64,000 nt of DNA from NCBI RefSeq assembly GCF_003334765.1, contig NZ_QOWT01000023.1, one strand, 5' to 3'. Source of the DNA: Escherichia coli (GTDB taxonomy: Bacteria; Pseudomonadota; Gammaproteobacteria; Enterobacterales; Enterobacteriaceae). Below are positions 42,409-56,296 of this stretch, in pieces (positions within the stretch are counted from its first letter, which is position 1; every line of letters starts with the position of its first letter). A model generated the notes under the pieces. The model was not told the origin of the DNA and did no database searches. It saw nothing but the letters and a program-made list of their open reading frames with translations. The position numbers and the translations under genes were made by a program.

Positions 42409-42496
42409 GTTCACTGCCGTACAGGCAGCTTAGAAATTCACAGGTAACATACTCCACCCGCCCACCATGTTCACTGCCGTACAGACAGATAAAATG
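42409..42496 (+). CRISPR. orphan type I-F CRISPR mini-array (2 repeats, 1 spacer), no cas genes in window
   Basis: Repeat 1 is GTTCACTGCCGTACAGGCAGCTTAGAAA (42409-42436), the canonical I-F repeat. The 32-nt spacer is TTCACAGGTAACATACTCCACCCGCCCACCAT (42437-42468). Repeat 2 is GTTCACTGCCGTACAGACAGATAAAATG (42469-42496), degenerate in its 3' half. An AT-rich leader-like stretch lies upstream. Confidence 0.85.
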
Positions 42497-42539: not shown

Positions 42540-42553
42540 TGGCGGTGAGGGGG
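42540..42553 (-). other. 14-nt 3'-terminal fragment of tRNA-Ser(GGA) serW (att-type core/duplication); no tRNA body present
   Basis: TGGCGGTGAGGGGG is the reverse complement of ...CCCCCTCACCGCCA, the acceptor/T-arm 3' end of serW as I recall it. The sequence diverges immediately after it (ACCGCCTGAAATAAATC). Confidence 0.6.
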
Positions 42554-42713
42554 ACCGCCTGAAATAAATCTGACTTAATCCGGGGGTGTTATATAATTTC
42601 ATTATAAACAATGTATTATACTTTTTTCTGTCCGATATTATCTAATGTATTCTTAGTGAAGCGAGAGACTAATGGCATACTGGATGGCATACTAGAGTAA
42701 CAGGAATTAGCGT

Positions 42714-43931
42714 ATGGCAGTTTTGACGGATACTAAAGCAAGGCATATCAAACCTGATGACAAACCATTGCCCCATGGGGGAATTACAGGACTGACTCTT
42801 CATCCTTCTTCAGTAAAAGGGCGGGGTAAATGGGTTTTTCGTTATGTAAGTCCGGTGACACAAAAAAGGCGTAATGCTGGATTGGGAACTTATCCTGAGG
42901 TCAGTATTGCTGAAGCTGCACGTGCTGCCCGGATAATGCGAGAGCAACTTGCTGCAGGTGATGACCCACTGGAGATTAAAAAGGCTGAAGCTGAAAAAGT
43001 TGTTATCCCAACATTTGCCGATGCAGCCAGGCGTGTACATGCTGAATTGTCACCGGGATGGGAAAATCCAAAGCATGTCAGGCAGTGGTTATCGACGCTT
43101 GAAAATTACGCGTTTCCTCAACTGGGAGCAAAAACGCTGGATTCGATTACGGCTGCGGACGTGGCAGAAACACTGCGTCCAGTCTGGTTAACCTTGTCAG
43201 AAACGGCAAGCCGGGTTAAACAGCGCATTCATGTTGTTATGCAGTGGGGATGGGCGCACGGTTTTTGTGTGGCAAACCCTGTTGATGTGGTTGGCCATTT
43301 GCTTCCTCAGCAGACAAGAGGACGTGATGAACACCAACCCGCAATGCCCTGGAGGCAGTTACCGCTTTTTGTGGCGACCAGTGTGTATACAGATGAACCT
43401 TATAATGTTACCCGGGCACTGTTATTAATGGTGATACTTACAGCAACCCGCTCGGGCGAAGCCAGGGGAATGCGCTGGGCTGAAATTGATTTTCATAAGC
43501 GGATATGGACTATACCCGCAGAAAGAATGAAAGCCAGGATACAGCATCGTGTTCCTTTATCCCGGCAGGCCATTCACATTCTGGAAAATATACGTGGTTT
43601 GCATGATGAACTAGTGTTTCCTTCTCCCAGAAAGCAGCAGATCCTTTCAGATATGGTGTTGACGAGTTTTCTGCGTAAAAAGAAAGCCATCAGTGATATA
43701 CCGGGGCGAGTTGCCACGGCACATGGTTTTCGCTCAACATTCAGGGACTGGTGTAGTGAACAGGGGTATTCGCGGGATCTGGCGGAAAGGGCGCTCGCTC
43801 ATACGCTGAAAAATAAGGTTGAGGCGGCATATCATCGTACTGATCTACTGGAGCAGCGTGTACCGATGATGCAGGCATGGGCGGATTATGTGATGTCTCA
43901 ACTTGCTAAAAACACTAAGGAATTCGCTTAG
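42714..43931 (+). CDS. P4-family tyrosine integrase (DUF4102 arm-binding N-terminus)
   Basis: 405-aa ORF. The N-terminus is MAVLTDTKARHIKPDDKPLPHGGITGLTLHPSSVKGRGKWVFRY. Catalytic residues are in context: ATRSGEARGMRW (R), HGFRSTFRDW (HxxR), LAHTLKNKVEAAYHRTD (H...Y). Confidence 0.92.
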   Translation: MAVLTDTKARHIKPDDKPLPHGGITGLTLHPSSVKGRGKWVFRYVSPVTQKRRNAGLGTYPEVSIAEAARAARIMREQLAAGDDPLEIKKAEAEKVVIPTFADAARRVHAELSPGWENPKHVRQWLSTLENYAFPQLGAKTLDSITAADVAETLRPVWLTLSETASRVKQRIHVVMQWGWAHGFCVANPVDVVGHLLPQQTRGRDEHQPAMPWRQLPLFVATSVYTDEPYNVTRALLLMVILTATRSGEARGMRWAEIDFHKRIWTIPAERMKARIQHRVPLSRQAIHILENIRGLHDELVFPSPRKQQILSDMVLTSFLRKKKAISDIPGRVATAHGFRSTFRDWCSEQGYSRDLAERALAHTLKNKVEAAYHRTDLLEQRVPMMQAWADYVMSQLAKNTKEFA

Positions 43932-44100: not shown

Positions 44101-45630
44101 CTATAGTCTGTTTCGGTGATACTTCAGTATGTTTTGATGATCACAAATGAAAACTCCGGCATCGAATGCAGGAATATTTAGTTTTTTTGCCAGTTCGGAT
44201 GGTGTAATCGTGTTTCCTATATAAACAACCAGGTTATCATCAATCCTTATTTTCCTTTGTTCCGCCAGTATGTCAAGTGCTTCATCCAGAACACATTTTT
44301 TCCTGAGAGCATATGGGGCATATTGTAAAATATAACTTTTCTGGAATATGTAACCTGCTGTTGTGATAATTCTTTTCTGAAGCCATTTATCAAGTTTCTC
44401 AGCCGGGGATATTTCCCGAAGGGATTCAAGTTTATATATAAGATGCTTGAAATAAAATTCAATGAGATAAATGGCGCTATTAGTACTTTCCAGCGTTATT
44501 ACTGTCGAGTCTGGATCTTTCTCCAGTTCCAGAAGTGCTGCTATCCTGACAACCTGCTCTCTTTTTCTGACAATAATGTCTTCAAAAGTACCCATATGAG
44601 GATTCTGTCTGACAGTATCCATATTTTCTTTGTGAAAGCGCTCCAGTGCGCGGGATGCTGCATTTGATAATGTCATGCAGATGCGCTCTTTACTTTTTGC
44701 ACGTCTTTCTCTGGATGCTCTCAGAGAGTCTCTGATCTGACTGCCAAAACTTTTCTTACGAAAACAGCTTGCACATTGTTGCGTCACAACAGGAATGGCA
44801 GTATGCGGTTCTGTCGTCATTATTTTAATTGCTCCGGGTTCGCAAAATAGCAACCGGGCCAGAAAGCCATTGCCCCGGATCTGATCGCCAGTGAGAGTAA
44901 AAAACTTATTAAATATTACCGGTTGAGTCAGTATAAGTATAGTGAGACGGACATCATTCAGCCGGAATCCGGGTCTGGATGCTCGTTCAACGTTGACGGG
45001 TTGCCCACTCCATAATGTGTTGTACAGTGCCGATTTGCGTTCGAAACGCTTATCCAGAATAGTACCTCCTTCGTCAGACAGCAACAGAAGAGAGGGGGAC
45101 TGGCTGAGTTTCAAAGCTATCCCTTCTGGTGTCGCGTCATTAACGATGAGAACCTGTTGTGTGGGAGGTACGGGTTTATTTGCTATACACTTTTCAAGTG
45201 CTGCTCGTGCAGCAGCAGCATTTTCCGGGGATCTTTCCATTTCCTTTTTATATCTCCGCTCCAGTATTTTTTTATCTGTTGTCCACATCTCCATCATTCG
45301 GTCATAGTTTTTCTTATCGTCGATATATGCCTGATGTAGTTCTTCTTCTGTTTCATGAACAGGAGCGATTAATTTTGCACAGGCAGAGGTTTTTCCACTG
45401 CCTGATGCTGATGAAAGACACATAAATATCTGAAGGCTGGTACGCTGTCCTCCGGAAAGTTCAACTTCATGCGTATCCTGGACTGAGGCAGCCTTGACCG
45501 TCAGCATAACAGACAGCAGTATTTCACGGCTTATTCCCGTTTCTTCATGCATTTCATTAAGTAATGCCTGGCTCCTGTCAGGCAGTTTAGTTATGTCAAG
45601 TTCAGGGAGTGATAGTTTTGTCGTCATCAT
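44101..45630 (-). CDS. YfjI-like DUF3987 protein (putative P-loop helicase/replication protein)
   Basis: 509-aa ORF with Walker A-like SSASGSGKTS and Walker B-like LLLLSDEGG. It sits downstream of alpA and overlaps it, as in CP4-57 alpA-yfjI. Confidence 0.65.
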   Translation of the reverse strand: MMTTKLSLPELDITKLPDRSQALLNEMHEETGISREILLSVMLTVKAASVQDTHEVELSGGQRTSLQIFMCLSSASGSGKTSACAKLIAPVHETEEELHQAYIDDKKNYDRMMEMWTTDKKILERRYKKEMERSPENAAAARAALEKCIANKPVPPTQQVLIVNDATPEGIALKLSQSPSLLLLSDEGGTILDKRFERKSALYNTLWSGQPVNVERASRPGFRLNDVRLTILILTQPVIFNKFFTLTGDQIRGNGFLARLLFCEPGAIKIMTTEPHTAIPVVTQQCASCFRKKSFGSQIRDSLRASRERRAKSKERICMTLSNAASRALERFHKENMDTVRQNPHMGTFEDIIVRKREQVVRIAALLELEKDPDSTVITLESTNSAIYLIEFYFKHLIYKLESLREISPAEKLDKWLQKRIITTAGYIFQKSYILQYAPYALRKKCVLDEALDILAEQRKIRIDDNLVVYIGNTITPSELAKKLNIPAFDAGVFICDHQNILKYHRNRL

Positions 45631-45889
45631 TAAGTTCCTTTTGTTTGTTTTCAGGTTCAGACCAGGCTGGTGCCGTATGTAACGTCAGCCACTCATCGAT
45701 GGCAGATGCCCGCCAGCCAACGGATGCACTTCCAAGCCTTATCGGTTTGGGAAAGGTAGGGTCGTGGTATTTCGAGGCCGGATTTATTTTCACGTAAATC
45801 GTGGACCTGGATATACCCAGCAGCCGGGTAAGTTCAGCCATACGCAGGATGCGTGAAGGTGTGTCAAGCTGTCCGGTTTGATTTGACAT
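45602..45889 (-). CDS. alpA: AlpA-family (MerR-type HTH) excision/transcription regulator
   Basis: ILRMAELTRLLGISRSTIYVKINPASKYHDPTFPKPIRLGSASVGWRASAIDEWL is the AlpA/Phage_AlpA signature. The start is chosen at the ATG preceded by GGAGA (M7 of the ORF). The 3' end overlaps the next gene by 29 bp. Confidence 0.85.
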   Translation of the reverse strand: MSNQTGQLDTPSRILRMAELTRLLGISRSTIYVKINPASKYHDPTFPKPIRLGSASVGWRASAIDEWLTLHTAPAWSEPENKQKELNDDDKTITP

Positions 45890-45962
45890 ATTGTTCTCCA
45901 TATGCATTGCACGTTGTGGTATCAGTTTGATAGCTTAAGGTCGGAATGTCCCCTGCGATAAA

Positions 45963-47825
45963 ATGCAAACCAACCGGAGAGCACAGCATATGCGCACATT
46001 TACAAATCTGTTGTATGATATTTGTACTGTTCTGGGGTTGTTCAGGGAAGGCGAGAACCCGGCACACAAGCGGAAGAGCACTAATTTCGAAATGCATCAA
46101 AAATTCTGGGATCAACGTTACAATGCGATCAGTCGTATTATTGATGCTGAAGGGGTGTATAGTCAGGAGCAACGGCGGATCATATATGCCCGGTATGAAC
46201 ATTTTTATTACATGATGAATTCTTATCCAGTTCATTCCACACTAAAATCTGAATTCCTTCGCAGCTATTGTCTGCGCACTTTTGGGGTTATTTTTCTTGT
46301 TGTAGATATTTATAATACATACAGACCAGAGAATGACTCTGCTTTTTATTATCATATTTATAATTTTTTACAGAAGTCGTATTGTCCTTGTCTTGATCAC
46401 TCTGATACAGAAAGCGATGAAGCTGCTGTTAAACGTTATCTTCGGGAATATCTGGCAGAACTGGGATTCAACAAGGAAGATTTTCATGAAAATGGAAAGT
46501 TGTATGCTCTGGGGAAATATACAGGAACTATTCGGAGGGATAACGGGAAAAGCAAGAGTCTGATGAAACAATATATCATGTCTATCAAAAATGAATATAA
46601 AAAGGATTATCGGGAGAAGAAACTGGATAAGGATGAACTGGAGAAATTACTCAGGAATATTGATAAATTCTATAATGCATTTTATTCATTAAGTGTCTTA
46701 CTTGATATACAACGAAAGACGAAGATACTTCAAAGCCTTGCATATTATCTCAGAGTGTTGGTGAGAAAGGGGCTCTGGACTCATGGTTTATATGGTTACG
46801 CTGAGCAATATCTTTATGACTTTACCAGCTTGGATACAACGCCTTATGCAAAAAAATTACTGGAAATGTTTTATAAGTTTGAAAACAGTGCAGAAGGGAC
46901 ATTGGCTCGTTATAATGTATCACTTGATGATAAATCTCAGGAATATATTGCCCGTCTGAAAGATCTTGTATTTAATATTAATGAGAAGAATGGTTGTGAT
47001 GACGCATATCTGAAAATGATTATAAGTCATTTTGGGCAGTTGCAGAATGAGGCTGTTCATGTGACCAGCTGCTACGGAACACTTGCGGTGTACATTTGTC
47101 TGATAAGGAAAAATAAAATTAATGATGTGCTGCATCATTATGATGACATGGAAAGAAAAGGATTGTTTGCTGAATTACCTTCAGGATATATCAGGGGGGC
47201 ATTATCGTTGCTTCGGACAGCACTGGAGGTTAAAGTAAATAGAAAAAATATAAAGTATGGCTCGTTGTTTTATTGGCTTGACCATGTAAAAGCTCATCAG
47301 GATGCATTTATTGAATCAATACCACTTATTGATCCTGTATATAAGGAGGGTGAAATACAGTATGATGCGAACAATTTTACCCTGATGCGTGTTATTAAGA
47401 TGTATAATTGTATGCTTGAAAAGATCAGTACGAAACCATATATAGCTCCCCCATATATTACAGGTTTGCTTGATGACGTAGAGAAGGTGCTGGATAAGAT
47501 AAATATTCTGATAGATAAAGAGTATGTTTATGATGGTAAGACACTGGCTGAAGTCATTATAGAGAACAAAGTATTATCCAGTCGCGAGCGTAAAGATACT
47601 ATGATAGGGCTTTTCACAGGCAGTAAGAAATATACTTTACTGCAATGTGTTGAGAAGCTTGGTGTATTAGTTCACTACGTGAAATCACCGGTCGATGAAA
47701 TTAAAAATGTGATGATGTTGTATGGCGATAAGGCCGAAAACAGGAACAGACGCAGAATGATATATGATGCGTTAACCATTATTTGTGAGGATGATAACAG
47801 GGCTAAACACCCTGATCTGTCGTGA
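45963..47825 (+). CDS. hypothetical protein, AT-rich orphan (620 aa; likely start at 45990 preceded by GGAG)
   Basis: Long uninterrupted ORF in very AT-rich DNA, divergent from alpA. It is rich in K/Y/N/E/L and probably all-helical. I recognise no catalytic motif. Confidence 0.7.
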   Translation: MQTNRRAQHMRTFTNLLYDICTVLGLFREGENPAHKRKSTNFEMHQKFWDQRYNAISRIIDAEGVYSQEQRRIIYARYEHFYYMMNSYPVHSTLKSEFLRSYCLRTFGVIFLVVDIYNTYRPENDSAFYYHIYNFLQKSYCPCLDHSDTESDEAAVKRYLREYLAELGFNKEDFHENGKLYALGKYTGTIRRDNGKSKSLMKQYIMSIKNEYKKDYREKKLDKDELEKLLRNIDKFYNAFYSLSVLLDIQRKTKILQSLAYYLRVLVRKGLWTHGLYGYAEQYLYDFTSLDTTPYAKKLLEMFYKFENSAEGTLARYNVSLDDKSQEYIARLKDLVFNINEKNGCDDAYLKMIISHFGQLQNEAVHVTSCYGTLAVYICLIRKNKINDVLHHYDDMERKGLFAELPSGYIRGALSLLRTALEVKVNRKNIKYGSLFYWLDHVKAHQDAFIESIPLIDPVYKEGEIQYDANNFTLMRVIKMYNCMLEKISTKPYIAPPYITGLLDDVEKVLDKINILIDKEYVYDGKTLAEVIIENKVLSSRERKDTMIGLFTGSKKYTLLQCVEKLGVLVHYVKSPVDEIKNVMMLYGDKAENRNRRRMIYDALTIICEDDNRAKHPDLS

Positions 47826-47861
47826 ACTCATCTGAGTGTGTTTTGAGTCAATAATCTTTAT

Positions 47862-47908
47862 ATCCCCCTGCTAATTTTGCTAACCATTAGCAAAATTAGC
47901 AGGGGGAT
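47862..47908. other. perfect 21-bp-stem hairpin 3' of the 620-aa ORF
   Basis: ATCCCCCTGCTAATTTTGCTA-ACCAT-TAGCAAAATTAGCAGGGGGAT. No U-tract follows on the plus strand. Confidence 0.7.
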
Positions 47909-48184
47909 TATCTATGTCTGGCAAGAGAAAATTCTATAATAGTATGATTTCTTTGTTTATTTTGTTTTTCAATTAGAATGGTGTGTTTTTGTGATCTATG
48001 TCTAATTGTTTTGTATTCTTAGCGCCATCCCATTCATGGGCAGATGTACATACCGCCCCTATTAGATTGATGGGTTGCATGTTCATTGTATCTGTAAAAT
48101 ATGCCAGTTTTGACATTAATACATAATCTGTAATTCGGTGTAAGCTCTTGTCTGGTGAATTATGTTGCGTATTCCGCTCTATTC

Positions 48185-48247
48185 GATCACGGATTGGGCC
48201 AAATCATGATCGATTCGAATGCCAAACTGCGATCGATTCAGATGCCA
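48185..48247 (+). repeat. three direct iteron-like repeats at 23-bp phasing, each starting with GATC
   Basis: GATCACGGATTGGGCCA (48185), GATCGATTCGAATGCCA (48208) and GATCGATTCAGATGCCA (48231). Confidence 0.7.
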
Positions 48248-49200
48248 TTTTGCATTATGTTAGTGGCTTATTCTTCTTGTTCTTTTTTACAGGTTATGTA
48301 AGTGTGATTATCCTGATTACTGGTCACTCATTATATACTGAGTCGACAAAACAAATGAGTATTAACTGAAGTTTTTATACAGTGATCATCTGTCTGGTTA
48401 GGTTAGTTAGTTCTGGGAGAATCACATTTATTTCATATACCATGAATAATTAAGGTTAATTAGTATTATTAGTTGGAGTTATGGTATTGTGTGTCTGTGC
48501 CGTATTGTTTGTATATTTGTTGTATAACTTATCTCTTTACGTGGTAATGTCACTCCTCTTTATGCTAAGTATTCTGTATGTGTGTAATGCATATATCTCC
48601 ATACACTACGCAGTGAAGCATATGGGGGAAGCTGTATGGTGAATTATGTGTGTAATGTTGTCCTGTACGTACTTAACACTGGTTACGTATCGGAACACTA
48701 TTAGAGCGTGTTATGACTCCGTTACAGTTTATAGGTATAGGTAAATATGATCTTTTCTGTATGGAACAATCTTCTTATGGTGTGTGGGTATGTTCTGTAT
48801 ACCATTATTCTTTTATGCTAATGATTAAATACCCGTGGTCTCTCTCGGCTTTACTTAATGGTTCGACAATATTAATAGCGATGTTGCCTGTAGCTAGCCG
48901 ATACTGAGTTTTGTGAATGTCAGATTACTTCCTGTAAAGAATTTAGTGGTGCTTCCTGAAACTCAATTCTATGAGGTGTGTTTTTCCATTGTAATTCGTA
49001 CTGGTTCTCAGTTTAAGAGAGTCTCACTGTATTCTGAAGTATTACCTCATCACAGTAATGCGGTAATACAAAACAGTTTTATCAGGTTGTCTGTGCTGCT
49101 GGTTTACTTCGTTTATTAATGCCGTGGTACGGCGTTTCTCTACTCTCAGTATTTACGTAAGTCTCTCTTCCTGTGAGTTTTATAAAGTAAGGACTATAAA

Positions 49201-49764
49201 ATGTATAATGCCAATCCCAATTACAAAATGGATTTCATGATTCTGAAAGACGTGAATGAACACATGGATGGTATGTTTCAACGTTTTTCTAAACTGTTAC
49301 CTTTCAGAATTGATTTTGCTTACAGGAAAGACACGCCCAGTTTCGGTCATTCCTGTAAGCACAGTATGTGTATGGAAATATACCGTTTACTTTGCGAAAC
49401 CCAGACGATGTTGGCGGGATATTACTGGGTAATGGAATATACACCAGACAAAGGGCTTCATATTCATTTTGTCGGCTACCTGGATGGGCAACGTCACAAG
49501 AACTCTTATCAGATATCCAGGCAACTGGGAGATATCTGGAGGCGGATCACGGAAGGGGAGGGTTACTTTCACCTTTGCCGGGCTAAAGACAAATACCCGG
49601 TGCGTATCGATCACGTGATGCACTATAGTGATAAGTCCGCGGTAGACAACTTACGTTACGCCCTTAGCTATCTGGCTAAACAGGATCAGAAAGAACACGG
49701 TATTATTCTGGGCCGTAGCAGGCTTCCCGAAAAAAGCAACCGGGGCCGACCACGACATAACTGA
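49201..49764 (+). CDS. YfjJ/YagK-type (inovirus Gp2-like) protein with HUH-type motif
   Basis: 187-aa ORF. It shares the family pattern of K-12 YfjJ as I recall it: FRIDFAY (RVDLHF), YYWVMEYTPDKGLHIHFVGYLDG (YIWVREF...HYHMILLLN), and LSYLAKQDQK (ASYLAKEKTK). HIH forms an HUH triad. Confidence 0.7.
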   Translation: MYNANPNYKMDFMILKDVNEHMDGMFQRFSKLLPFRIDFAYRKDTPSFGHSCKHSMCMEIYRLLCETQTMLAGYYWVMEYTPDKGLHIHFVGYLDGQRHKNSYQISRQLGDIWRRITEGEGYFHLCRAKDKYPVRIDHVMHYSDKSAVDNLRYALSYLAKQDQKEHGIILGRSRLPEKSNRGRPRHN

Positions 49765-49840: not shown

Positions 49841-52279
49841 GTGGGGCGCTTTGTCATCAGTGTAGGGGACCCGAATTTCTGCCGTGGTGCCTCAGTGGAT
49901 CGGATACAGGTAACGAATATGGTTCATAAATCTGACAGTGATGAATTAGCTGCATTGAGGGCAGAAAATGCCCGTCTGGTCTCATTACTTGAAGCTCATG
50001 GGATTGAATGGCGACGTAAACCGCCGATCTCTGTGCAGCGCGTTTCTGTATTATCCACCAATGAGAAGGTTGCATTATTTCGTCGGTTGTTTCGCGGGCG
50101 TGATGATGTATGGGCACTTAGATGGGAAAGTAAAACCAGCGGCAAATCAGGGTACTCTCCTGCCTGCGCTAACGAATGGCAGGCGAGAATATGCGGTAAG
50201 CCCCGGATAAAATGTGGGGACTGCGCTCACCGTCAGTTGATTCCTGTATCTGATCTCGTCATCTACTACCATCTGGCAGGTACCCATACTGCCGGGATGT
50301 ATCCGTTGCTGGAAGATGATTCCTGTTATTTTCTGGCTGTTGATTTTGATGAAGCTGAATGGCAGAAGGATGCATCCGCATTCATGCGATCCTGTGATGA
50401 GCTGGGTGTACCCGCTGCGCTGGAAATATCCCGTTCACGTCAGGGAGCGCATGTCTGGATATTTTTTGCTTCACGAGTTTCGGCCCGCGAAGCTCGCCGT
50501 CTGGGGACTGCTATTATTAGTTATACGTGTAATCGAACTCGACAGCTGCGATTGGGTTCTTATGACCGATTATTTCCTAATCAGGATACGATGCCAAAAG
50601 GGGGATTTGGTAATCTCATAGCATTACCTCTGCAAAAAAGACCGCGTGAATCGGGGGGAAGTGTTTTTGTTGATATGAATTTCCAGCCTTATTCTGATCA
50701 ATGGGCTTTTCTTGCATCGGTGATCCCGATGAATGTGCAGAATATTGAACCGACGATATTACGGGCTACAGGAAGTATCCATCCTCTGGATGTGAACTTT
50801 ATCAACGAAGAAGACCTGGGTACGCCATGGGAAGGGAAAAAATCATCAGGAAACAGACTGAATATTTCTATTGCAGAACCGCTGAAAATCACGCTGGCAA
50901 ACCAGATCTATTTCGAAAAAGCGCAATTACCTCAGGTGCTGATTAACCGACTTATTCGGCTGGCAGCATTTCCGAACCCTGAGTTTTATAAGGCTCAGGC
51001 AATGCGTATGTCAGTCTGGAATAAGCCCCGTGTTATAGGTTGTGCGGAGAATTACCCGCAACACATTGCGTTGCCCCAGGGATGTCTGGACAGCGTATTA
51101 TCTTTCCTTAGGGACAACAATATTGCTGCAGAATTAATCGATAAACGATTTGTCGGGACGGAATGTAATGCCGTTTTTATGGGAAACCTCAGAGCGGAGC
51201 AGGAAGAGGCCGTTTCGGCATTACTCCGTTATGACACTGGTGTGCTTTGTGCGCCAACGGCTTTTGGTAAGACAGTTACCGCAGCGGCAGTGATTGCCAG
51301 ACGGAAAGTGAATACACTGATACTGGTACACCGGACTGAATTGCTGAAGCAGTGGCAGGAGCGTCTCGAGGTGTTTCTGCAGGTTGGTGACAATATTGGT
51401 ATTATCGGGGGAGGTAAACATAAACCCTGTGGCAATATTGATATTGCGGTGGTGCAGTCCATATCCAGACACGGAGAAGTTGAACCTCTGGTCAGGAATT
51501 ATGGGCAAATCATTGTGGATGAGTGCCATCATATTGGCGCGGTTTCATTTTCTGCGATTCTGAAGGAAACGAATGCCAGATATCTGCTTGGCCTGACGGC
51601 AACACCAATCCGACGGGATGGTCTGCATCCCATTATTTTTATGTACTGTGGTGCCATTCGCCATACAGCGGTCCGCCCGAAGGAAAGCCCACATAATCTG
51701 GAGGTACTGACCCGTTCCCGTTTTACATCTGGTCATTTACCATCGGATGCGAGAATCCAGGATATTTTCAGAGAAATTGCTCTGGATCATGACAGAACGG
51801 TGGCGATAGCTGAAGAAGCCATGAAAGCTTTCGGGCAGGGGCGAAAAGTTCTGGTACTGACTGAACGTACAGATCATCTGGATGAGATAGCATCAGTGAT
51901 GAATTCACTGAAATTGTCCCCCTTTATTCTCCATGGACGACTATCGAAAAAAAAGCGTGCGATGCTGATATCCGGGCTGAATGCTCTTCCTCCTGATTCT
52001 CCCCGTATTTTGTTGTCAACAGGCAGACTTATTGGTGAGGGATTTGACCACCCTCCGCTGGATACGCTGATTCTTGCCATGCCTGTGTCATGGAAAGGGA
52101 CATTACAGCAGTATGCGGGACGTCTACACAGAGAGCATACCGGTAAAAGCGATGTCAGGATCATTGATTTTGTGGATACCGCGTATCCAGTGCTGCTCAG
52201 AATGTGGGATAAACGCCAGCGGGGTTATAAGGCGATGGGGTACAGGATTGTGGCTGATGGTGAAGGGCTTTCATTTTAA
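49841..52279 (+). CDS. archaeo-eukaryotic primase (AEP/PrimPol)-like domain fused to DEAD/DEAH-box SF2 helicase (probable start ATG 49919)
   Basis: The N-terminal half has AEP-like motifs: FLAVDFDE (DxD, 50342-50350), SRQGAHVWIFF (sGxH), and YDRLFPNQD...GGFGNLIALPL. The C-terminal half has Walker A APTAFGKTV, motif II IIVDECHH (51514-51531), LGLTATP, and motif VI QYAGRLHR. Confidence 0.8.
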   Translation: MGRFVISVGDPNFCRGASVDRIQVTNMVHKSDSDELAALRAENARLVSLLEAHGIEWRRKPPISVQRVSVLSTNEKVALFRRLFRGRDDVWALRWESKTSGKSGYSPACANEWQARICGKPRIKCGDCAHRQLIPVSDLVIYYHLAGTHTAGMYPLLEDDSCYFLAVDFDEAEWQKDASAFMRSCDELGVPAALEISRSRQGAHVWIFFASRVSAREARRLGTAIISYTCNRTRQLRLGSYDRLFPNQDTMPKGGFGNLIALPLQKRPRESGGSVFVDMNFQPYSDQWAFLASVIPMNVQNIEPTILRATGSIHPLDVNFINEEDLGTPWEGKKSSGNRLNISIAEPLKITLANQIYFEKAQLPQVLINRLIRLAAFPNPEFYKAQAMRMSVWNKPRVIGCAENYPQHIALPQGCLDSVLSFLRDNNIAAELIDKRFVGTECNAVFMGNLRAEQEEAVSALLRYDTGVLCAPTAFGKTVTAAAVIARRKVNTLILVHRTELLKQWQERLEVFLQVGDNIGIIGGGKHKPCGNIDIAVVQSISRHGEVEPLVRNYGQIIVDECHHIGAVSFSAILKETNARYLLGLTATPIRRDGLHPIIFMYCGAIRHTAVRPKESPHNLEVLTRSRFTSGHLPSDARIQDIFREIALDHDRTVAIAEEAMKAFGQGRKVLVLTERTDHLDEIASVMNSLKLSPFILHGRLSKKKRAMLISGLNALPPDSPRILLSTGRLIGEGFDHPPLDTLILAMPVSWKGTLQQYAGRLHREHTGKSDVRIIDFVDTAYPVLLRMWDKRQRGYKAMGYRIVADGEGLSF

Positions 52280-55250: not shown

Positions 55251-55544
55251 TAGCTGGGGTTGTGGGTGTGGTCTTCCTATTGATGAAAAAAACAAGCAAT
55301 TACTTGGCATATTATCTGTAACACTTTAAAACTGTTAAGAAGATCACAATTCATTATGTTTATTATTGTCTGGCCGGAGGGATATTTGTTAAAAAGTGCG
55401 CCGTGTGGTGAATCCCCCTGTGCGGTGGGGCGACTGGTGTACATAGCATTTATTATGTTATGAGCGAAGCCTACGCGGGTTCAGTGACACCGACTGAATT
55501 CACCGGGAGGCACCCGGCACCATGCAACAGACGCAAGTTAGGCT

Positions 55545-56296
55545 AAGCCTTATACCCCTGTAAGTTTTTTACAGGGGTTTTTTGTGCACAGAAAACCCCC
55601 AGCTAGGCTGGGGGTTCCGGAAAGCTTTCAGCTTTGAGCCAGTTATTAAAACCCCTTTTGATTTGTTAAAACACCTTGCGGTCTGGCAACTGCAAGAGTC
55701 AAACAAGAAATCAAAAGGGGTTCCAATGGGGAACGAAAAGAGCTTAGCGCACACCCGATGGAACTGTAAATATCACATAGTTTTTGCGCCAAAATACCGA
55801 AGACAGGTGTTCTACAGAGAGAAGCGTAGAGCAACAGGCAGTATTTTGAGAAAGCTGTGTGAGTGGAAAAGTGTACGGATTCTGGAAGCTGAATGCTGTG
55901 CAGATCATATCCATATGCTTGTGGAGATCCCGCCCAAAATGAGCGTATCCGGCTTTATGGGATATCTGAAAGGGAAAAGCAGTCTGATGCTTTACGAGCA
56001 GTTTGGTGATTTGAAATTCAAATACAGGAACAGGGCGTTCTGGTGCAGGGGGGACTACGTCGATACGGTGGATAAGAATACGGCGAAGATACAGGATTAC
56101 ATAAAGCACCAGCTTGAAGAGGATAAAATGGGAGAGCAGTTATCGATTCCCTATCCGGGCAGCCCGTTTACGGGCCGTAAGTAACGAAGTTGGATGCAAA
56201 TGTCAGATCGTGTGCGCCTGTTAGGGCGCGGCTGGTAAGAGAGTCTTATAGGCGCATTTGAAAAACCTCCGGCCATGCCGGAGGATATTTATTTAT
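55545..56296 (+). mobile_element. IS200-type (IS200/IS605 family) element; boundaries approximate
   Basis: There is a left-end terminator-like hairpin CCCCTGT-N9-ACAGGGG plus T6 (55555-55583), the tnpA gene, and a right-end hairpin CCTCCGGCCATGCCGGAGG (about 56267-56285). Confidence 0.75.
55726..56184 (+). CDS. tnpA: IS200 Y1 (HUH) transposase TnpA
   Basis: 152 aa from the internal ATG, MGNEKSLAHTRWNCKYHIVFAPKYRRQVFY...ADHIHMLVEIPPKMSVSGFMGYLKGKSS, with the HUH motif HIH and the catalytic Y region. Confidence 0.9.
   Translation: MGNEKSLAHTRWNCKYHIVFAPKYRRQVFYREKRRATGSILRKLCEWKSVRILEAECCADHIHMLVEIPPKMSVSGFMGYLKGKSSLMLYEQFGDLKFKYRNRAFWCRGDYVDTVDKNTAKIQDYIKHQLEEDKMGEQLSIPYPGSPFTGRK

Follow-up and report, generated by a model that had tools for sequence, protein, structure and literature searches.

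What role, if any, is played by a long tract without genes that lies directly before the gene of a putative nicking enzyme in a CP4-57-like genomic island of Escherichia coli? The tract spans positions 47826-49200 of the window, i.e. the whole 64-kb stretch of DNA that was analysed. It is non-coding and composite, and most of it is filler that drifts freely, at a near-neutral rate, before the nicking-enzyme gene. Evidence of function is confined to a box of 24-36 nt (48448-48483), and the remainder drifts at approximately the synonymous rate with frequent indels. The box is probably either the transcription start or the nicking site of the Gp2-type gene that follows. As the tract illustrates, a region that is long, free of ORFs and odd in composition can consist mostly of unconstrained spacer surrounding one small functional site.

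The initial annotation described the tract as gene-free, with a plus strand rich in T and G and poor in C, and both descriptions hold. The stretch 47823-49185 (1363 nt) has no stop-free frame of at least 100 codons and is the longest of its kind in the window, the runner-up measuring 957 nt. The plus strand contains 24.9% A, 15.8% C, 20.0% G and 39.3% T, which corresponds to an AT content of 64%. Its T+G content of 59.3% is at the top among all 1375-nt windows on both strands, 0.08% of which reach that value. The skew is a trait of the E. coli lineage and is missing from the equivalent gaps in the Erwinia, Citrobacter and Yersinia relatives. The small ORFs of the tract, already suspected of being driven by composition, are at chance level because their longest stop-free run (80 codons) matches the expectation from shuffled sequences (83 +/- 19). 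The recurring motifs reported earlier are all present: TATGTGTGTAATG in two copies (48577 and 48645), TTCTGTAT at 48572, 48755 and 48793 (three of the six copies in the window, with 1.6 expected) and GGTTAGGTTAGTTAGTT at 48396-48412. Because the second copy of ATGTGTGTAATG and the third of TTCTGTAT fall in segments that are missing or altered in related islands, the motifs are not conserved as repeats. The k-mer enrichment of the tract is modest (z ~4-5).

One element and its immediate flank depart from this pattern:

48448-48471, plus strand: conserved box AATTAAGGTTAATTAGTATTATTA, 24 nt, AT-rich, the sole deeply conserved element of the tract
48472-48484, plus strand: semi-conserved 3' flank of the box, consensus rtRGRAGTtaT

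The box includes a 7-2-7 palindrome, TAATTAA-GG-TTAATTA, and a TAnnnT hexamer (TAGTAT). It is deeply conserved, single-copy and fixed in orientation: the window has one copy (0 expected), and each related locus has one, always on the plus strand and upstream of a Gp2-type gene, at a distance of 84-1164 nt. It persists where the Gp2-type proteins are only 34-62% identical and the flanks cannot be aligned. Its divergence tracks that of the protein, with 1-2 mismatches at 42-62% protein identity and 4-9 at 34-45%. Box copies were found in 68 of the 69 metagenome loci that have enough flank and in 2108 of 5426 complete E. coli genomes. The search of genome contigs with the Gp2 protein returned two close Escherichia loci only and the metagenome scan close relatives only; the distant relatives were gathered via protein matches. 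In these distant relatives, represented by the Erwinia, Citrobacter and Yersinia gaps, homologous sequence is limited to the box. The hexamer, at box positions 13-18, reads T-A-n-n-n-T in all variants (TAGTAT, TAATAT, TAATGT, TAACAT and TACTGT), its variation being concentrated in the middle three bases. The 3' flank recurs as GTGGAAGT, ATAGAAGT and AAAGAAGT amid unrelated flank contexts. In addition, the box is the least stable 30-nt duplex of the tract (-28.4 kcal/mol, against a mean of -36.0 +/- 2.7). Some relatives have a compact layout, taken to be ancestral, with a divergent intergenic region in which only 84-190 nt separate the box from the ATG. A scan of viral contigs gave 53 matches; all but two are due to chance in AT-rich viruses, and the two genuine ones are E. 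coli islands. The sequence of the box was not found in the literature searched, which also holds no description of a box and long leader for these islands.

The gene that accompanies the box lies directly after the tract:

49201-49764, plus strand: gene of a Gp2-type (YagK/YfjJ family) HUH endonuclease, 187 aa

The Rep-like character first assigned to this gene is borne out by the HUH (H87, H89) and YxxK (Y157, K160) motifs of its product. These motifs and a C-terminal RGRPR are invariant or nearly so in 12 homologues. Pfam gives weak matches to REP_ORF2-G2P and YagK_YfjJ_C. The AlphaFold model has a pLDDT of 89.6, and the nearest solved structures of known function, also weak matches, are HUH nuclease domains. 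The invariant RGRPR is disordered in the model and may be an AT-hook-like element. The neighbour said to be a primase-helicase is indeed an AEP primase joined to an SF2 helicase (812 aa), and is named TOTE conflict system by NCBI and Pfam. Gene order here is Gp2 followed by the AEP primase-helicase, while in distant relatives Gp2 is followed by AlpA. The window has an AlpA-family gene on the minus strand (45602-45907; PF05930, E 1.6e-17), and one is present, by Pfam Phage_AlpA or AlpA-type HTH annotation, in every related island with enough flank. The tmRNA/tRNA-associated defence islands of Pseudomonas have a core of int, alpA, DUF3987/YfjI and an inovirus Gp2-like gene (bioRxiv 10.1101/2024.08.29.610337). 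The core gene set of CP4-57-like and tmRNA/tRNA-associated defence islands, K-12 CP4-57 among them, is the same as here. The cargo downstream of the Gp2-type gene is the TOTE AEP-helicase here, and comprises AbpAB, type I and type II restriction-modification, Dpd and SNF2 systems elsewhere. K-12 CP4-57 differs in that its yfjI-yfjJ gap is just 152 nt long, and no clear copy of the box was found in it.

Upstream of the box, the tract is composed of the following parts:

47862-47908, plus strand: terminator-like hairpin, a perfect 22-bp inverted repeat (100% complementary) with a 3-nt loop
47909-48447, unstranded: lineage-specific non-coding filler, common only to islands of the same layout (620-aa ORF upstream)
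48198-48254, plus strand: IS21-family (ISSso4-like) terminal-repeat scar, with 23-bp tandem GCCAAA..GATCGATTC units
48396-48412, plus strand: GGTTAGGTTAGTTAGTT, an imperfect, partial copy of the box's left half, lying 53 nt before the box

The hairpin begins 37 nt past the stop codon of the 620-aa ORF and was flagged as terminator-like in a consensus scan. This ORF had been called an orphan, but homologues of 605-627 aa exist in many related islands. The filler is 79-93% identical to that of related locus L012, cannot be aligned to L006, L008, L011 or L013-L016, and is missing from islands with YfjI upstream. The scar sits within an insertion of ~85 nt relative to L012 (48167-48250), and the segment is missing in L012. 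Its 57-62 nt agree at 98-100% identity with the end of IS21-like elements in L003 and L004, ~175 nt before istA, and with hundreds of copies on chromosomes and plasmids; L003 has further internal copies of the 23-nt unit. This multi-repeat end belongs to the terminal regions of IS21-family elements (ISSso4/IS100-like). Unlike intact elements, the window keeps these 57-62 nt only; because transposase genes are absent here, 48198-48254 is regarded as an IS21-family remnant, and L012-type islands are without it. The partial box copy GGTTAGGTTAGTTAGTT differs from the left half of the box by 2 mismatches in 12. There are four such matches in the window and 4.1 are expected, so that it is statistically indistinguishable from chance.

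Downstream of the box, a T/G-rich, C-poor leader of ~730 nt extends to the Shine-Dalgarno sequence of the Gp2-type gene:

48485-48665, plus strand: hypervariable, indel-rich, T/G-rich low-complexity segment (column conservation 0.18-0.74, gap fractions up to 0.79)
48666-48865, plus strand: moderately conserved mid-leader, with a 40-nt presence/absence segment (48786-48825)
48866-49200, plus strand: proximal leader, with ~90% column conservation within the E. coli group

The hypervariable segment carries both copies of ATGTGTGTAATG and a degenerate leader hairpin (48597-48628). Its counterpart in most E. coli relatives lies ~110 nt downstream of the box, has 13 bp (-17 to -20 kcal/mol) and is followed by TTTAGTTA. 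In the window, the inner stem of the hairpin is replaced and the T-run lost; O157-type islands are without the hairpin, and no terminator-like leader hairpin was found in distant relatives. Over 15 variants the hairpin is 94% paired, and since ~20% of the pairs are G-U, it forms on the plus strand only. The mid-leader has a small hairpin with two compensatory changes in one lineage (alignment pairs 467/478 and 468/477). The proximal leader contains a palindrome at 49039-49069, consensus TATTACCTCATTAC-A-GTAATGAGGTAATA, which is invariant only in its outer 7 bp, and a Shine-Dalgarno sequence, AAGGA (49189-49193), 7 nt upstream of the ATG. Identity of the proximal leader to relatives is 0.86-0.90 (0.96 for L011), and the third codon positions of the adjacent CDS are 0.85-0.98 identical; the leader therefore changes roughly as fast as the synonymous sites of the adjacent gene do, and it has many indels. 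Evasion of Rho was considered as an explanation of the leader composition (few windows with C > G) and discarded: the upstream ORF is equally poor in C, and distant relatives are without the property.

We favour, tentatively and at somewhat below an even chance, the reading of the box as a promoter/operator, with a long untranslated leader of the Gp2 operon after it. The tract would then span the end of one transcription unit and, for the unit after it, the control region and a long untranslated leader. The 22-bp hairpin would end the transcript of the 620-aa ORF; after ~540 nt of lineage-specific filler, including the IS21-family scar, would come the box and its short conserved 3' flank, acting as promoter/operator of the Gp2 operon, with the plus strand transcribed. 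The TAnnnT of the box would be a -10-like hexamer at the point of easiest melting, the invariant GGTTAATTA would be a regulator-binding element between -35 and -10, and the conserved RGAAGT would be the transcript start. Transcription may then cross a leader that is largely free to drift, expand and accept insertions. First, the T-A-n-n-n-T hexamer is conserved at the same box position in all variants and coincides with the melting site. Furthermore, the compact layouts, with the box so near the ATG, leave little space for another promoter. Finally, E. coli 536-type islands have hha, in the same orientation, interposed between the box and the Gp2 gene, an arrangement that a single operon would predict. 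A long 5' leader had been among the first suggestions, and it is retained here as a possibility, with functional evidence limited to 48448-48483 and near-neutral drift in the rest.

The arrangement resembles promoters subject to antitermination by Q or AlpA (lambda PR'-tR', P. aeruginosa PalpB-tB; PMC7969949), in which a sequence-specific element also lies just upstream of the -10 hexamer. In P. aeruginosa, AlpA acts as an antiterminator; it binds an element located between -35 and -10, and a terminator follows downstream (PMC7969949). As in these promoters, a strong -35 is lacking and the putative initial transcribed sequence is conserved; in most E. coli relatives a T-run hairpin follows ~100 nt downstream, and a long stretch precedes the genes that would be regulated. 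In addition, every island examined encodes an AlpA-family protein. This likeness comes from sequence comparison, and several points stand against it. The box bears no resemblance to GGGACG-N5-GGTA, the AlpA element as published. As to the terminator-like hairpin, the window has a degenerate form that lacks the T-run, O157-type islands are without it, and none was found in distant relatives. AlpA is expected to control the integrase gene, but no second box was found near that gene, its promoter included. Among the box variants compared, there is neither a conserved -35 hexamer 16-18 nt upstream of TAnnnT nor an extended -10, with TG at -15/-14. The consensus promoter scan makes no call in the TAnnnT register and finds 6 promoter-like sites in the tract, compared with 7.8 in shuffled sequence; its nearest call (-35 ATCACA, -10 AATAAT at 48445-48450) merely touches the 5' edge of the box. 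Conservation of all 18-24 bases of the box also exceeds what sigma-70 recognition needs.

The main rival to the promoter/operator reading sees the box as the site that the adjacent Gp2-type HUH nickase recognises and nicks, and thus as a rolling-circle double-strand origin of the excised island or an oriT-like site, perhaps embedded in the promoter region of the gene itself, with the rest of the tract as spacer. Judged on the sequence features at hand, this is a serious possibility, although on balance unlikely. In the neighbouring protein the HUH and YxxK motifs are intact, the predicted fold has HUH nucleases as its nearest functional matches, and the RGRPR, if AT-hook-like, might suit an AT-rich site. 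The box is the sole non-coding element that travels with the Gp2-type gene, as a single oriented copy whose divergence follows that of the protein. In rolling-circle plasmids and CRESS viruses, a short near-invariant site with flanks that cannot be aligned typifies the nick site, and the box has 18 contiguous near-invariant bases in such a setting, which is typical of nick sites and not of sigma-70 promoters. Its place at the easiest-melting site of the tract would also be suitable, and an origin could tolerate the variation in box-gene distance (84-1164 nt). Read from the sequence, TAGTATTAT and TAATATTAT agree at 8/9 positions with the nonamers of circoviruses and geminiviruses, TAGTATTAC and TAATATTAC, although a match of this quality is fairly often expected in AT-rich DNA.

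Compared with known HUH origins (the f1 gene II origin, the dso of rolling-circle plasmids, the CRESS nonanucleotide and oriT), the tract shares a long non-coding region directly upstream of a Gp2-type gene, and a short, highly conserved, oriented AT-rich box at the easiest-melting point that agrees with NANTATTAC at 8/9 positions. Many plasmid oriT and dso regions lie within promoter regions of the initiator gene, and the ancestral setting of the box, a divergent intergenic region, resembles that of plasmid oriT in divergent promoter regions. Unlike known HUH origins, the tract lacks a maintained hairpin and clear Rep-binding repeats or iterons, a single-strand origin was not identified in it, and f1 gpII is more than twice the size of the 187-aa product. 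The palindrome TAATTAA-GG-TTAATTA loses 1-2 pairs in several lineages, with mismatches in the left arm and no compensatory changes, and a stem of A/T pairs only, with a loop of just 2 nt, would be unstable. The k-mer enrichments are modest and lineage-specific: the recurring words CTGTAT, GTAATG and AGTATT, as well as TGTAAT (L022) and AGTAT (L019), reach z ~4-9, differ by lineage and are not positionally conserved. The replication origin proposed at the outset is kept in narrowed form, its functional evidence being limited to the box at 48448-48483. A stronger version, in which the box and the small, putatively AT-hook-bearing nickase form a previously unrecognised origin of rolling-circle replication or transfer, seems less likely still. 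If it were true, this origin would be common to the CP4-57-like tRNA/tmRNA-associated defence islands of ~40% of complete E. coli genomes and would occur also in Citrobacter, Erwinia, Yersinia and other Enterobacterales. Such an origin would account for any amplification after excision, and for the spread, of 'cryptic' islands that carry no conjugation or packaging genes.

Other resemblances of the box were set aside. Its likeness to the f1 gpII origin is limited to TAGTGGA, and in this comparison, as in that with SP6/T3-type phage promoters (ATTTAGG...TATAGAAG), the shared parts are unconserved among relatives or wrongly spaced. A P4/PICI-type iteron origin served by the DUF3987/YfjI helicase was also rejected, as no iterons were found and the gap is not adjacent to YfjI in the window.

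The box may also be a nucleation or architectural site for silencing proteins (H-NS/Hha, IHF) or another island regulator, in which case the tract would be silenced acquired DNA without a Gp2-specific role. We regard this as improbable. The AT content of 64%, the near-neutral evolution of the tract and the Hha-family gene inside the equivalent gap of 536-type islands agree with it, but generic sites of nucleoid proteins are degenerate, whereas the box is kept base for base across genera despite diverged flanks. Its strict single copy, orientation and linkage to the Gp2-type gene would also be left unexplained. The hha gene itself has left no trace in the tract by tblastn.

A long structured non-coding RNA had been suggested as well, and a tract that is long, ORF-free and strand-skewed, with a few local hairpins that tolerate wobble-compatible changes, invites this idea; it is now very unlikely. 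At permissive thresholds, Rfam gives over 40-56 kb only spurious mir-2300 matches on both strands, caused by the hairpin at 47862-47908, which is also the reason for the folding z of -6.2 in 47826-48445. In the region 48446-49200, shuffled sequence folds about as well as the real one (z = -0.63 for the plus strand, -1.95 for the minus), and the best leader hairpin does not exceed shuffles either. With RNAalifold on 16 relatives, the consensus reaches -46 kcal/mol over 850 columns with a negligible covariation term of just -4.4. Large indels and losses of whole segments between close relatives, and the lack of homologous sequence beyond the box in distant ones, contradict a structured RNA.

The remaining suggestion, a decayed protein-coding gene, fits the roughly gene-like size of the tract and the stop-free stretches, reaching 97 codons, that some relatives have close to the 3' end, but is hardly credible: no Pfam match was found in six frames of the tract (E up to 1), the homologous DNA in E. 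coli genomes and plasmids carries no annotated gene, phages give no match, and open frames are disrupted by 1-nt indels between near-identical relatives. A conserved small ORF was likewise discarded, since these stretches have no start codons and change frame between close relatives.

If the box is a promoter/operator or a Gp2-type nick site, it would mark the switch point of very common defence and virulence islands of E. coli. Among the islands concerned are OI-43/48 of O157:H7 and, in EPEC E2348/69, the nleB/nleE/lifA island. The box may serve as a simple 24-nt marker for finding such islands, and as an experimental target in studies of their induction, replication and mobility. Esr41 of OI-43 maps elsewhere, between z1181 and z1182.

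The region between the 620-aa ORF and the gene for the 187-aa Gp2-type HUH protein (gp2) is truly non-coding, and the finding worth keeping from it is a directly testable 24-nt AT-rich element, here called the box. The initial annotation had described this tract as poor in ORFs, rich in T and G and poor in C, which was borne out. It holds the longest run in the window without a stop-free frame of at least 100 codons (1363 nt; the runner-up has 957 nt) and tops the T+G content among 1375-nt windows on either strand (T 39.3%, C 15.8%). Its small ORFs are no more than chance predicts, the longest open frame having 80 codons against 83 +/- 19 in shuffled sequence. All three recurring motifs were found where they had been placed, and the k-mers CTGTAT, GTAATG and AGTATT are modestly enriched (z ~4-5). 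The tract is a composite of hairpin, filler, box and leader.

Features of the tract and its flanking ORFs
45963-47825, 620-aa ORF
47826-49200, tract between the 620-aa and 187-aa ORFs
47862-47908, perfect inverted repeat (22-bp arms, loop of 3 nt), 37 nt past the 620-aa ORF stop codon
47909-48447, filler, common only to islands of the same layout
48448-48471, plus strand, box
48485-49200, leader, the stretch from box to gp2 ATG
49201-49764, 187-aa ORF (gp2)

The inverted repeat looks like a terminator. It alone accounts for the folding z of -6.2 in the left part and for the sole Rfam 'hits' (mir-2300, both strands). In the filler, positions 48198-48254 share 98-100% identity with the multi-repeat terminus that IS21-family elements carry ~175 nt upstream of istA, and match hundreds of chromosomal and plasmid sites. 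Since an otherwise collinear island (L012) also lacks ~85 nt here, this segment is an insertion-sequence scar. The scar explains a GATC-rich 23-bp tandem repeat that could be mistaken for iterons. Near the 3' end of the leader, AAGGA (49189-49193) provides gp2 with a good Shine-Dalgarno sequence. Mostly, the tract is an expandable, near-neutral spacer in which low-complexity T/G-rich sequence and an IS scar have gathered.

The window is an E. coli genomic island of the CP4-57-like class, with int, alpA, DUF3987 and Gp2 as core. Its layout is integrase, DUF3987 helicase-like gene (minus strand), AlpA (minus strand), 620-aa hypothetical protein, gap, 'inovirus-type Gp2 protein' and 'TOTE conflict system archaeo-eukaryotic primase domain-containing protein'. 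In a related Pseudomonas island class, a Gp2-like gene and alpA are likewise among the core genes (bioRxiv 10.1101/2024.08.29.610337). The same tract, unannotated, is present with 97-99.8% identity in NCTC9082, EPEC E2348/69 and others. The 620-aa ORF, previously called an orphan, has homologues of 605-627 aa in many related E. coli and Citrobacter islands, on either strand relative to the island core; it matched no family in Pfam, NCBIfam, PADLOC or PHROG. The 187-aa protein has all three HUH-endonuclease hallmarks (FRIDF, H87-x-H89 and Y157-x-x-K160). Its structure was modelled confidently (pLDDT 89.6), and the closest solved structures of known function are HUH nuclease domains (AAV Rep, parvovirus NS1, SIRV1 ORF119), with weak scores. 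Residues 180-185 lie in an invariant, low-confidence (disordered) C-terminal tail, S-x-RGRPR, which resembles an AT-hook and would suit the binding of AT-rich DNA, for instance at the box. To our knowledge, this tail has no earlier description.

The box reads AATTAAGGTTAATTAGTATTATTA, followed by a semi-conserved RGRAGT. By blastn, no other part of the tract was found in relatives with 42-62% Gp2 protein identity, where the box has 1-2 mismatches; at 34-45% protein identity it has 4-9 mismatches and is still recognisable. There is one box in the window, where none is expected, and one per related locus, always on the same strand and 84-1164 nt 5' of the gp2 ATG. Of 69 metagenome loci whose flanks were long enough, 68 have it, as do about 2,100 of the 5,426 complete E. 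coli genomes. The box is also the 30-nt duplex of lowest stability in the tract. It does not belong to phages; 51 of 53 viral-contig matches are chance. Whether promoter/operator or HUH origin, the box adds a new example to a known kind of element and is very widespread in E. coli; our literature search found no paper describing the box or the long leader. Both readings fit and may coexist, not being mutually exclusive.

Our preferred reading, held tentatively, is that the box may well be a promoter/operator with a long leader. T-A-n-n-n-T is kept at one position in every variant (TAGTAT, TAATAT, TAATGT, TAACAT, TACTGT), and, as in a -10 hexamer, variation clusters in the middle three bases. 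Distant relatives have a compact layout, taken to be ancestral, in which a ~300-aa minus-strand gene, gap, Gp2 and AlpA follow each other and the box is only 84-190 nt from the ATG. The leader hairpin has ~20% G-U pairs, and so would form only on the plus strand; a T-run follows it in most relatives. Islands of the E. coli 536 type have an hha gene between box and gp2, in the same orientation. This hha/ymoA-family gene (70 aa; L087 3742-3954 in E. coli 536, also L088, and L022 5605-5766) is ~740 nt past the box and 230 nt ahead of gp2; the gap of the window holds no trace of it. Just upstream of the hexamer, GGTTAATTA is invariant; together with the missing -35 it recalls lambda Q and Pseudomonas aeruginosa AlpA, where the element bound is placed between -35 and -10, with a terminator downstream (PMC7969949). 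Every island here with sufficient flanking sequence encodes an AlpA-family protein. Against a promoter, neither a -35 nor an extended -10 was found at the box, and a consensus scan gave no call in the TAnnnT register, the nearest site only touching the 5' edge. In the window the leader hairpin is degenerate; O157-type islands lack it, and it was not detected in distant relatives. There is no second box near the integrase gene, and the box bears no resemblance to the published AlpA element.

A possible but less likely reading is that the HUH nickase uses the box as its nick site or origin. The neighbouring gene encodes an HUH enzyme that is intact and probably bears an AT-hook, the distance from box to gene is unconstrained, and 18 contiguous near-invariant bases amid unalignable flanks are the pattern of a nick site. 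At 8 of 9 positions, the core agrees with the nonamers of circoviruses and geminiviruses. However, the box palindrome shows no compensatory changes maintaining pairing, there are no clear iterons, and similarity to the f1 origin is not convincing.

The yfjI-yfjJ gap of K-12 CP4-57 (L174 5396-5547) has only 152 nt and no clear box, the nearest sequence being AAGGACTTAATTTAAG. This gap contains CTTGATA, the nick-site core of pC194/phiX174 class rolling-circle initiators, which may be chance.

The box is an exception to the conservation of the leader, which does not exceed what shared ancestry predicts; identity in the proximal 390 nt (0.86-0.90; L011 0.96) is comparable to that at third codon positions of adjacent coding sequence (0.85-0.98). 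The 3' 560 nt of the tract were found in 1,586 of 5,426 E. coli genomes at 78-88% identity, always directly 5' of a Gp2-type gene and never annotated. The upstream gene in relatives is the 620-aa ORF or YfjI, and the gap measures 0.37-1.45 kb in every relative examined. The middle part (48485-48665) is hypervariable and indel-rich, and whole leader segments were gained or lost among 28 representatives clustered at 97%. The T/G skew is common to the E. coli group and absent in the gaps of Erwinia, Citrobacter and Yersinia relatives.

The tract is not a long structured RNA, one of the options in the initial annotation. The plus strand of 48446-49200 has the same folding energy as its shuffles (z -0.63; minus strand -1.95), and the RNAalifold consensus of 16 diverse relatives reached only -46 kcal/mol across 850 columns, its covariation term being -4.4. 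The best local hairpin, ~110 nt 3' of the box, shows 94% pairing across 15 variants; its variation is nearly all wobble-compatible single changes, not above shuffles. Nor is the tract a gene or a recognisable pseudogene: a six-frame Pfam scan (E up to 1) had no match, contrary to the proposed decayed gene, no annotated gene lies beneath homologous DNA in 5,426 E. coli genomes and 72,556 plasmids, 50,697 phage records gave no match, and the stretches free of stops in some relatives, at most 97 codons long, have no start codon and shift frame through 1-nt indels between near-identical sequences.

Cargo 3' of gp2 differs by island (loci L006-L008, L011-L017, L019, L021, L024, L082-L089 and L170-L174) and includes TOTE AEP-helicase, AbpAB (K-12), type I and Eco57I-like restriction-modification, Dpd, SNF2, zinc-ribbon proteins, enterotoxin and IS elements. 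Therefore, the gap and gp2 mark the border between island core and a variable cargo slot, which behaves as a cargo or defence hotspot. In the window, the 812-aa AEP-plus-SF2-helicase protein (49841-52279) matches Pfam AEP-TOTE (E 1.6e-98) and the PADLOC model for CRISPR-associated PrimPol (E 1e-143); no paper accounting for the name 'TOTE conflict system' was found in our literature search. A minimal type I-F CRISPR remnant (42409-42496) sits just upstream of the island integrase gene (42714-43931), and in it a single perfect repeat (Rfam CRISPR-DR4, 50 bits) is separated by a 32-nt spacer from a second, degenerate one. At ~42541-42554, TGGCGGTGAGGGGG resembles a tRNA 3' end on the minus strand; ARAGORN detected no tRNA over 42000-64000. 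Two adjacent full-length Rfam sRNAs, STnc100 (138 bits) and STnc490 (146 bits), are present at 55373-55717 on the plus strand.
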